From a virus (lineage: Duplodnaviria; Heunggongvirae; Uroviricota; Caudoviricetes), in the IMG/VR virus record IMGVR_UViG_2537562231_000016: a stretch of 7,537 nt of DNA. The stretch is one strand, 5' to 3'. Position 1 is the stretch's first letter. Each line of letters opens with the position of its first letter. A model generated the notes under the pieces. That model was given only the letters and a program-made list of their open reading frames with translations, did not search any database and was not told where the DNA came from. This document shows, piece after piece, positions 1,236-3,092 of this stretch. Both the position numbers and the translations under genes were made by a program.

Positions 1236-3092
1236 TTATGATGATGCTGGTGCATTTATCTCCAGCACCAGACTTTCTATCTCAACGCCATACGCTGCAT
1301 TTTTGGTAATATCCGTCAGCGTCAGCGCATTCAGCCCCAGTGTCAGACTGTCTTTTATGACCTGGAATGCCGGGCCAGCCACTCCATTCAGTTTCGGAGT
1401 AACCGTGGCACTGCCGGCGGTGAACACCAGCTCCAGCGTCTGCCAGTCGTTACTGTAATTCCCGAACTCGCCCAACTTTGTGTTTCCGGCTTTCTTGTGA
1501 TGCATCAGATTCAGTTTGCCGTCTGTGGTCTGGGTGAAGAACGACATCAGGAACGGGTTACCAGTTCCGGTCATCGCCACGACGTCAGGTAACGCTACAT
1601 CGGTATACAGATAAATTCCCAGACCGAACTGGTTGTTGGTCAGTGCGCCTGACAGTCGAAACTTACAGCTCAGTCTGCCACCCCGTGTCAGCAGGGAGAC
1701 TGCGTCATCCACCGGATGCATCAGGGACCAGGTTTTATTGCTCTGCTTGGTAACCTTAAACACACCATCTTCCAGCGCAACACTGCCGCCGGTGATGGTC
1801 CAGCCCTGCGCAGCAGCCTCTCCGGCTGTCGGCAGCAGGGAGACTGTACGAACGGATGTGTCACCATCAGACGGCCCCGATGGCGTGTCGCCGCCGGGCG
1901 AGGGTTTAATCTCCGGTGCGGTACCGCTGATGAAGGCGCTGGTTCGACCAACTGCGTTCAGAATAGCGGTTGCCAGGCGATCCGAAATAATGCCCCTGCG
2001 CGCCCATGAACTGAAATGTGTCGGACGATTTGACGATACCCAATTACCATTACTACGGGATTGCGCGCCGTAATAACCTGCATCAGCAATATCCGGGTCT
2101 TCTGCCGGTAAGTTGGTGGGCGTGTTGTTGCCGTTACCGTCGGTCATGAACGGCACAAAGAAAACGTTGTCGCTCTCCCTGTTTTTGTATGCGCCGTAGA
2201 CGGAGTCATACTGTGTGCCGTATGTGTTTTTCCAGTAATACGTCGTGTCGCCACAAATCCACGGTACAACTGCAGCACTGCCGCCATGGCACTGCGCGTT
2301 AAATCCGGAAAGGTCAGTACGGAACTGCTTCAGCATGGCCGTGAACAGGTCCGGTTGCTGTGCGTAGGTGGCAGCGCTCATGTCAAATTCGCCCTGCATC
2401 CAGCACACCGCCAGCAACACATTTTTCGGGTTCTTCTGTAATGCCGCTTTGGTGCGTGCGATCAGGTCCTGATATAACGGTTTACCCACACCCCAGCGTA
2501 CCGAATCCTGGCTGGCCCCCGTGTCCGCACTGAATGTCCCCTCCGCGCCCTGGGTGAATGCCGAACCACCACGACAGCATGGTACCAGCAGGATCCCCGC
2601 GTTATTCGGGATATACGGAAGCAGTTTTTTGGCAATATGTAAGCCCTGGCCGACACAGCCGTACTGCCCTTTGCTCAGGTCTGCCTTCGGATGATTCAGT
2701 GCGCTCATATCCTGAACATCATGCAGGCAGTGGTCTGCCGGAATGATGTCGTTAAATGCGCATGCTTTACCACCGGGAGTCACTGTGTTGCGACGGGCCA
2801 GTTGCTTAATGCGTGGGTGGGGCGCATCGTAAGAATCCGGAAGCGGAAGCCCTTCACCGTAAGCCATGGCATTGGATTGCCCGGCCAGTACGATGACGTA
2901 GTACCACTCCGGCTCAGTTGCACCACTGACGACCACATCACCTTCTGCTGCAATCGCCTGCATCAGGGTATAAGGGGTTATGGCCACCGGACTACCAAAC
3001 GGCTGCCAGCCCTCTTTCAGTTTATGTGTCAGCTTTTCCGCAAGATCTGACGGCGACGCCGCCCTGACAACATCATAGTGTTTAAATGCCAT
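1236..3092 (-). CDS. nanS: Prophage sialate O-acetylesterase, NanS-p type (SASA/SGNH-hydrolase domain with GQSN catalytic motif, plus C-terminal domain)
   Basis: Maximal ORF is 1236..3107 (623 aa). I place the start at the second ATG (3092..3090, MAFKHYDVV...) because GGTGGAAAG lies 5-9 nt upstream, whereas the first ATG at 3107 has no Shine-Dalgarno sequence. Contains VIVLAGQSNAMAYGEG, typical of sialate 9-O-acetylesterases. Its position just upstream of the holin matches nanS-p in Stx and related prophages. Confidence 0.85.
   Translation of the reverse strand: MAFKHYDVVRAASPSDLAEKLTHKLKEGWQPFGSPVAITPYTLMQAIAAEGDVVVSGATEPEWYYVIVLAGQSNAMAYGEGLPLPDSYDAPHPRIKQLARRNTVTPGGKACAFNDIIPADHCLHDVQDMSALNHPKADLSKGQYGCVGQGLHIAKKLLPYIPNNAGILLVPCCRGGSAFTQGAEGTFSADTGASQDSVRWGVGKPLYQDLIARTKAALQKNPKNVLLAVCWMQGEFDMSAATYAQQPDLFTAMLKQFRTDLSGFNAQCHGGSAAVVPWICGDTTYYWKNTYGTQYDSVYGAYKNRESDNVFFVPFMTDGNGNNTPTNLPAEDPDIADAGYYGAQSRSNGNWVSSNRPTHFSSWARRGIISDRLATAILNAVGRTSAFISGTAPEIKPSPGGDTPSGPSDGDTSVRTVSLLPTAGEAAAQGWTITGGSVALEDGVFKVTKQSNKTWSLMHPVDDAVSLLTRGGRLSCKFRLSGALTNNQFGLGIYLYTDVALPDVVAMTGTGNPFLMSFFTQTTDGKLNLMHHKKAGNTKLGEFGNYSNDWQTLELVFTAGSATVTPKLNGVAGPAFQVIKDSLTLGLNALTLTDITKNAAYGVEIESLVLEINAPASS

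Follow-up and report, generated by a model that had tools for sequence, protein, structure and literature searches.

A full-length gene for a NanS-p-type sialate O-acetylesterase in the late region of an stx-negative lambdoid prophage of Escherichia coli

Introduction

NanS-p proteins form a known prophage family of enzymes that act on O-acetylated sialic acids (PMC8065619, PMC10462455), as a preliminary description of the DNA studied here had rightly stated. Recombinant NanS-p of EDL933 and O104:H4 prophages de-O-acetylate 5-N-acetyl-9-O-acetylneuraminic acid (Neu5,9Ac2) and mucin glycans, and permit growth on Neu5,9Ac2 (PMC8065619). For nanS-p linked to stx2a, the only case in which this was measured, mitomycin C induces nanS-p together with stx in a Q-linked manner (PMC10462455). 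Here we analyze a nanS-p gene located at positions 1236 to 3092, on the minus strand, of a 7,537-nucleotide stretch of Caudoviricetes DNA (IMG/VR record IMGVR_UViG_2537562231_000016; this whole stretch is called the window).

Two described proteins serve as references. The chromosomal NanS (YjhS, structure 3PT5) catalyzes deacetylation with Ser19 and His301, the oxyanion hole being formed by Gln18 and a Gly, and it does so without the usual catalytic Asp (PMC9063846). The second reference is the NanS-p encoded by 933W (L0105), EDL933 (z1466) and phi24B (vb_24B_21, or gp84). In phi24B, a podovirus with a T=9 head, the N-terminal DUF1737 domain of gp84 was found as a hexamer plugged into the capsid hexons, the rest of the protein being cleaved off; it binds the flat central hexons only (preprint 10.64898/2026.04.10.717836).

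Results

The reading frame and its domains

We conclude, with a probability of about 0.88, that positions 1236 to 3092 encode an intact sialate O-acetylesterase of the NanS-p family, and that the gene belongs to the late genes of a lambdoid, stx-negative prophage of E. coli. The parts of the gene, all on the minus strand, are the following.

1236 to 3092, minus strand: nanS-p coding sequence, 618 amino acids plus stop (1857 nucleotides), SASA family carbohydrate esterase.
2928 to 3092, minus strand: N-terminal DUF1737 domain, residues 1-55 (Pfam PF08410, 4.7e-16), variant A as described below (...GWQPFGSPVAITPYTLMQAIAAEGDV).
1956 to 2918, minus strand: NanS-like SGNH/SASA esterase core, residues 59-379 (3PT5, E=1.1e-124; PF03629, 5.6e-13).
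1239 to 1829, minus strand: C-terminal DUF6645 or lectin-like jelly-roll domain, residues 422-618 (PF20350, 2.2e-19; 6YP6, E=1e-30).
2871 to 2882, minus strand: GQSN, SGNH block I, residues 71-74, the Ser73 codon TCC lying at 2874-2876.
2016 to 2018, minus strand: His359 codon CAT, in the RPTH-FSS block, equivalent of NanS His301.

The list of open reading frames (ORFs) of the window gives an uninterrupted frame from 3107 to 1236, i.e. 623 codons. The in-frame ATG at 3107 adds five residues and is used by no homologue and no RefSeq annotation, whereas the start at 3092 (MAFKHYD...) is that of all the aligned homologues and of the RefSeq coding sequences of near-identical E. coli chromosomes. 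It yields a protein of 618 residues and also fits the cryo-electron microscopy model of the phi24B homologue, as that model begins at Ala2 (preprint 10.64898/2026.04.10.717836). No internal stop and no frameshift is present between 1236 and 3092, and both the length and the C-terminus (...EINAPASS) agree with those of the closest alleles, JLK-2012 (617 residues) and Stx1_699 (616 residues). The full-length frame with a GQSN motif claimed in the preliminary description is thus confirmed, with 618 uninterrupted codons and GQSN at residues 71-74. The possibility of a pseudogene was considered and rejected, the frame being full-length and the catalytic residues kept.

The protein displays the three-domain architecture of NanS-p, namely DUF1737, a SASA/NanS-like esterase and a lectin-like C-terminal domain, the three Pfam hits all exceeding the curated cut-offs. 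A phmmer search against all Protein Data Bank sequences aligned NanS/YjhS (3PT5, E=1.1e-124) over 321 nearly gapless residues; in the numbering of the 623-residue ORF the matches extend over residues 64-384 for 3PT5 and 427-619 for 6YP6, the structure of a NanS-p C-terminal domain. All four NanS-type SGNH blocks (GQSN, CCRGGSAF, WMQGEFD and RxxH) are present at the same positions as in the NanS-p of 933W and VT1-Sakai, and the CCRGGSAF and WMQGEFD blocks are identical in NanS, 933W L0105, VT1-Sakai H0032 and the window protein. The RPTH form of block IV, in place of RSSH or RASH, was described before, in Stx2 prophage 86 (PMC10462455).

Aligned with NanS of K-12, Ser19 corresponds to Ser73, Gln18 to Gln72 and His301 to His359. 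By this alignment Ser73 is the predicted nucleophile and Gln72 the predicted oxyanion-hole counterpart. The assignment to the NanS-p-type sialate O-acetylesterases made from the raw sequence therefore holds, borne out by the three-domain architecture and the conserved catalytic Ser and His. The preliminary description had proposed to abandon this assignment if the Ser of GQSN and its His and Asp partners were missing on alignment. Ser and His are there; the part of the proposal that concerns Asp does not apply to this family, because NanS-type enzymes use a Ser-His pair (PMC9063846).

Comparison with the described NanS-p and NanS

The alignment with the O157:H7 alleles suggested in the preliminary description shows shared SGNH blocks, with 58% overall identity to VT1-Sakai (Sakai) H0032 and 56% to 933W L0105 (EDL933 z1466). 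The identity to the latter is unevenly distributed, at 60% in DUF1737, 71% in the esterase core and 37% in the C-terminal domain. The domain order, the SGNH blocks, the catalytic Ser and His, and the location between the stx slot and S are common to the two; the differences are a loop three residues shorter in the window DUF1737 and a host phage that, for 933W, is a podovirus with an unrelated head. The chromosomal NanS has a core 58% identical to that of the window protein, with conserved Ser19, Gln18 and His301 and the same catalytic pair devoid of Asp. It differs in being a single-domain protein of 326 residues encoded in the nanCMS operon, with neither DUF1737 nor lectin-like domain.

The nearest described relatives are NanS-p proteins of long-tailed lambdoid phages, with stx1 or without stx: yjhS of Stx1_699 (BCI49619.1), PP_44 of JLK-2012 and the H-19B/YYZ-2008 type. 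They have the same variant in all three domains, a length of 616-618 residues including the window protein, the same C-terminus, and a host phage with the same head module as the window prophage. Their overall identity is 89-90% (90% in the esterase core), i.e. about 10% amino-acid divergence, and phages of this type carry stx1 or tciA/tciB in the slot in which the window prophage has iraM only. RefSeq proteins of other E. coli, named “SASA family carbohydrate esterase”, are closer still (98.7-99.7%), and the exact 618-residue sequence is found at NCBI in 37 contigs under the name “SASA family carbohydrate esterase [Escherichia coli]”. The 90%-identity cluster of the protein has 1558 members, and at least 80% of the window, taken as a whole, is contained in 563 of 5426 complete E. 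coli genomes (~10%). Thus the gene is an ordinary one, already catalogued, whose exact sequence is in public databases; as a recognised intact member of a characterised family it matters little as a finding on the window.

The yjhS of the Stx2a phage Stx2_EH1910 (L006, 2421-4316) is an intragenic chimera, window-like up to about residue 180, just past CCRGGSAFT, and 933W-like thereafter. Recombination breakpoints therefore fall within the esterase core.

Position in the late region of an stx-negative prophage

The gene order on the minus strand is a DUF968 gene truncated at the end of the window, rusA, Q, an ORF of 65 codons, a methylase gene, three tRNA genes, the slot (35% GC), nanS-p, a P21-type holin gene S, ydfR and the last 357 base pairs (bp) of the insertion sequence (IS) IS1. 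The features other than nanS-p are given below.

5903 to 6724, minus strand: late antiterminator Q, 273 amino acids (PF03589, 1e-49).
5479 to 5676, minus strand: ORF of 65 amino acids, no known function, within the late transcript between pR'/Q and the tRNAs.
4279 to 5328, minus strand: N6/N4 DNA methylase, 349 amino acids, within the late transcript between pR'/Q and the tRNAs.
3980 to 4229, minus strand: three phage tRNA genes, Arg(tct), Arg(tcg) and a tRNA with a CAT anticodon.
3936 to 3939, no strand: site of the missing stx operon, just past the tRNA terminator, where Stx2_EH1910 has its 1332-bp stx2A-stx2B cassette (L006, 5140-6471).
3353 to 3688, plus strand: iraM, anti-adapter protein IraM family, 111 amino acids (NCBIfam NF007393, 162 bits for a cut-off of 121).
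870 to 1085, minus strand: holin S, 71 amino acids, P21-type class II (pin)holin (PF04971, 2.3e-32; RefSeq “class II holin family protein”).
521 to 865, minus strand: ydfR-family gene (DUF1327; PF07041, 7.3e-43), between the holin and endolysin genes.
1 to 357, plus strand: right-hand 357 bp of IS1 (PF03400, 5.7e-48).

The location is that of the nanS-p genes, in a lambdoid late region: the gene lies downstream of Q and of the stx slot but upstream of holin S, an order also found in 933W and VT1-Sakai. As had been proposed, the gene adjoins the lysis genes: S begins 150 nucleotides beyond the end of nanS-p. Met codons stand in frame at both position 1 and position 4 of holin S (MYQM).

Stx2_EH1910 is the closest stx-carrying counterpart. 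It shares DUF968/ydfU, rusA, the 273-residue Q, the methylase, the three tRNAs, iraM, nanS-p and S with the window, and the nucleotide identity upstream of the slot is 93.7%. Apart from its chimeric nanS-p, the sole large difference in the shared backbone is the 1332-bp stx2AB cassette, which maps to a clean gap at 3936/3939 of the window; the empty site retains the tRNA terminator on one side and, on the other, the sequence usually found downstream of stx2B. The slot is therefore stx-less with base-level precision, as the preliminary description had stated. It had called it a cargo slot, and the slot is not empty, since it contains a full-length iraM on the opposite strand. An Stx2a phage backbone and its stx-free counterpart, the window, can be compared with the empty site known to the base, which is of modest use for the study of gain and loss of the stx cassette.

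The point of interest put forward at the outset, that nanS-p accompanies an stx-less slot, is nothing unusual. In EDL933 only two prophages carry stx. This strain nevertheless contains seven to ten nanS-p copies (PMC8065619), so a nanS-p without stx is the usual situation; it is common in stx-negative prophages and documented as such, nanS-p being known from non-Stx prophages of Shiga toxin-producing and other E. coli (Pascal et al. 2023, PMC10462455).

DUF1737 variants and phage heads

The DUF1737 domain of the window protein is 60% identical to that of 933W, whose phi24B counterpart binds hexons, and it retains the loop Tyr (Y41, for Y42). We compared DUF1737 and head genes among about ten phages (L005, L018-L024, L007, L009 and L021). 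Three variants appear:

Variant A (window type): JLK-2012, BP-4795, Stx2_EH2201, Stx2a_F349 and Stx1_699; head protein of the window prophage, a prohead-protease/major-capsid fusion, 94.8-100% identical.
Variant B: VT1-Sakai and Stx2_12E129_yecE; another head/portal module, 92-99.7% identical between the two phages.
Variant C: 933W; podovirus head.

Each of the three variants goes with its own head module, and this sample contains no exception; the three modules are unrelated, with no cross-hits between the head proteins of the three classes. In larger searches variant A was found at 90% identity or more in 105 phage records, and the window-type head protein, at the same threshold, in 93. Stx2c_EH0474 also has variant A; for its head the indication is indirect, in that the head-protein search returned 17 Stx2c-converting records, as did the NanS-p search and the DUF1737 search.

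The remainder of the protein does not follow the head. BP-4795, Stx2c_EH0474, Stx2_EH2201 and F349 have variant A together with esterase and C-terminal domains of 933W type: the first three are only ~56% identical to the window protein over their whole length, and the C-terminal domain of F349 is 39% identical. Plain linkage is a poor explanation of the match between variant and head, because the stretch between DUF1737 and the head genes, which includes the lysis genes and the C-terminal half of nanS-p, is freely exchanged. 

These data give about even odds to a reading in which NanS-p is a modular enzyme that decorates the capsid, with DUF1737 as an interchangeable adaptor suited to the carrier phage's head, including that of long-tailed lambdoid phages with a fusion head, the window prophage among them. 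The evidence for anchoring to the capsid consists of the co-variation of DUF1737 with the head and of one preprint (10.64898/2026.04.10.717836). If the reading is correct, the finding made on phi24B would extend from one podovirus to the whole NanS-p family, and about one in ten E. coli genomes would contain, in nanS-p, a gene with a structural role in the phage and a role in its interaction with mucus. The match between variant and head is independent comparative support for the recently claimed tethering of NanS-p to capsids, which would change the view of the purpose of a “metabolic” prophage gene.

As a separate observation, the annotations of Stx1_699 and Stx2_12E129_yecE suggest a common integrase/cI/replication arm; the two phages differ in both head and DUF1737.

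Expression and release

The sense strand has four terminator-like hairpins between Q and nanS-p (5805-5820, 5475-5492, 3948-3965 and 3723-3744), and no sigma-70-type promoter match was found on the minus strand upstream of nanS-p in the window. Because of these two features, expression of nanS-p is most likely dependent on antitermination by Q once the prophage is induced. Upon induction of the prophage, RNA polymerase modified by Q would read from pR' past several terminators and into nanS-p. The esterase core would then remove the 9-O-acetyl group of Neu5,9Ac2 and of acetylated mucin glycans, giving sialic acid usable by E. coli, and the C-terminal domain would target the enzyme to glycans. 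By homology, the esterase activity of this allele should be the same as that of the EDL933 and O104:H4 enzymes.

No hydrophobic stretch hinting at a signal peptide was seen on reading the N-terminal residues, so that NanS-p would exit the cell only through phage lysis or on virions. DUF1737 may dock the protein on its own head type, the prohead-protease/major-capsid fusion, in which case the enzyme would be virion-associated as well as freely released. Release on lysis, as announced in the preliminary description, is to be qualified: IS1 stands between the endolysin gene and the pair formed by the holin gene and ydfR, and in a homologue the N-terminal domain was shown to decorate the capsid (preprint 10.64898/2026.04.10.717836).

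A further terminator-like hairpin, of 12 pairs and followed by a T-run, is located at 1125-1153 (minus strand), within the 150 nucleotides that separate the stop codon of nanS-p from the start of the holin gene. For a polymerase not modified by Q, it would part nanS-p from the lysis genes.

The IS1 insertion

The insertion was defined by comparing a locus with a full-length IS1 (L012, IS1 at 10736-11503) with an IS-free sister locus (L010). In full-length copies of the locus it is a simple insertion of 768 bp that duplicated 9 bp of the target (GGCGACGGT), and none of the flanking DNA is lost. IS1 lies 163 bp downstream of ydfR, ahead of the endolysin gene, and so splits the lysis cassette. 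The junction is present in none of the 5426 complete E. coli genomes, and the exact 37-nucleotide junction pattern has no match in the genome contig collection. A look-up of exact proteins led to two draft assemblies, L011 and L012, in which it is present, the latter matching the whole window at 99.9%. Past IS1, genes for endolysin, Rz-type lysis proteins and terminase are still called in both. A head gene is also called past it in L011, and the contig of L012 ends within the gene of the large terminase subunit. A second IS is found in L011, where it lies between the methylase gene and iraM.

IS1 cannot silence nanS-p, because it lies downstream of it. For the genes beyond IS1, processive antitermination is known to suppress the polarity of ISs, and for this reason the Q-modified polymerase might read through IS1.

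Alternative readings

The interpretation given in reviews (PMC8065619), and shared by the preliminary description, is that of a soluble enzyme of benefit to the host and released by lysis only, DUF1737 having no role at the virion in a long-tailed phage. Decoration of the capsid was shown for the podovirus phi24B only, on the flat central hexons of a T=9 head, and the head protein of the window prophage is unrelated to the phi24B-type head; on these grounds such a purely host-directed enzyme is possible. We hold it to be rather doubtful, since the DUF1737 variant follows the head module while the SASA domain, the C-terminal domain and the lysis genes are exchanged, and since the exchanged parts are physically nearer to the head genes than DUF1737 is, so that simple linkage fails. 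A different target for the esterase appears improbable. In that hypothesis, raised in a review (PMC8065619), the enzyme would act mainly on O-acetylated bacterial surface polysaccharides (O-antigen or capsule) and help the phage to adsorb. The divergence of the C-terminal glycan-binding domain (37% identity, one aromatic lost) would be in keeping with it, but the catalytic core shares 58% identity with NanS and 71% with the NanS-p of 933W, both reported to be active on Neu5,9Ac2, and a lipopolysaccharide substrate is supported for no member of the family. Finally, the breaking of the late operon by IS1 163 bp past ydfR, along with the second IS of the sister genome L011, could evoke an IS-ridden, decaying prophage in which nanS-p is open but unexpressed or non-functional. 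This is very improbable: the frame is full-length with every catalytic residue kept, the 90%-identity cluster comprises 1558 members, IS1 is downstream of nanS-p and exerts no polar effect on it, and the genes past IS1 are still called, up to the head gene in L011.

We thus retain the reading of an intact NanS-p esterase encoded by a late gene, with a capsid-bound form at even odds. Several points nevertheless weigh against one or the other part of it. The linker that follows DUF1737 is 11-14 residues shorter than in 933W and VT1-Sakai (11 relative to 933W) and is devoid of SISSP, the motif proposed as processing site (preprint 10.64898/2026.04.10.717836). The co-variation with head type comes from about ten related phages, for which common ancestry is possible. 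The C-terminal domain is 37% identical to the crystallised one. At the positions of the four proposed sugar-binding aromatics of phi24B, Y515 is identical, Y510 and Y540 are replaced by F and F611 by L; three are thus conservatively kept and one is a Leu, and the glycan targeting of this divergent domain may differ. The NanS-p sources consulted here (PMC8065619, PMC10462455) report no enzyme assay for this allele group. Lastly, the endolysin, spanin and head genes could be expressed less because of IS1, which would limit both release by lysis and display on virions in this particular lysogen.

Other features of the window

The iraM gene is convergent with the late operon and lies in the 35% GC island of the slot. 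A Pfam search of this ORF returned no family; the NF007393 match covers positions 1-113 of the 114 of the profile, so the gene is full-length, and the product is identical to UniProt IRAM_ECO27. An iraM of this RssB anti-adapter family is also found beside stx2 in Stx2_EH1910 and Stx2_EH2201. A PhoP-box-like sequence with one mismatch (TGTTTATTGTTTATTTA, 3241-3257), about 100 nucleotides upstream of iraM, was rejected, as chance alone gives a mean of 1.8 per window.

The tRNA gene at 4154-4229 (minus strand) is called tRNA-Met (CAT) by ARAGORN; RefSeq and the 933W record give an ileZ-type tRNA-Ile reading AUA. The block of three tRNAs, Ile-Arg-Arg, is the one located upstream of stx in 933W.

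IS1 also disrupts an antisense ORF of 90 codons (WP_000369850.1), of which the 50 C-terminal codons are left at 403-555 of the window. In strain S1-ZIM-01-A, the place that matches the window also spans an ISEcp1 transposase gene and the gene of the CTX-M-15 beta-lactamase.

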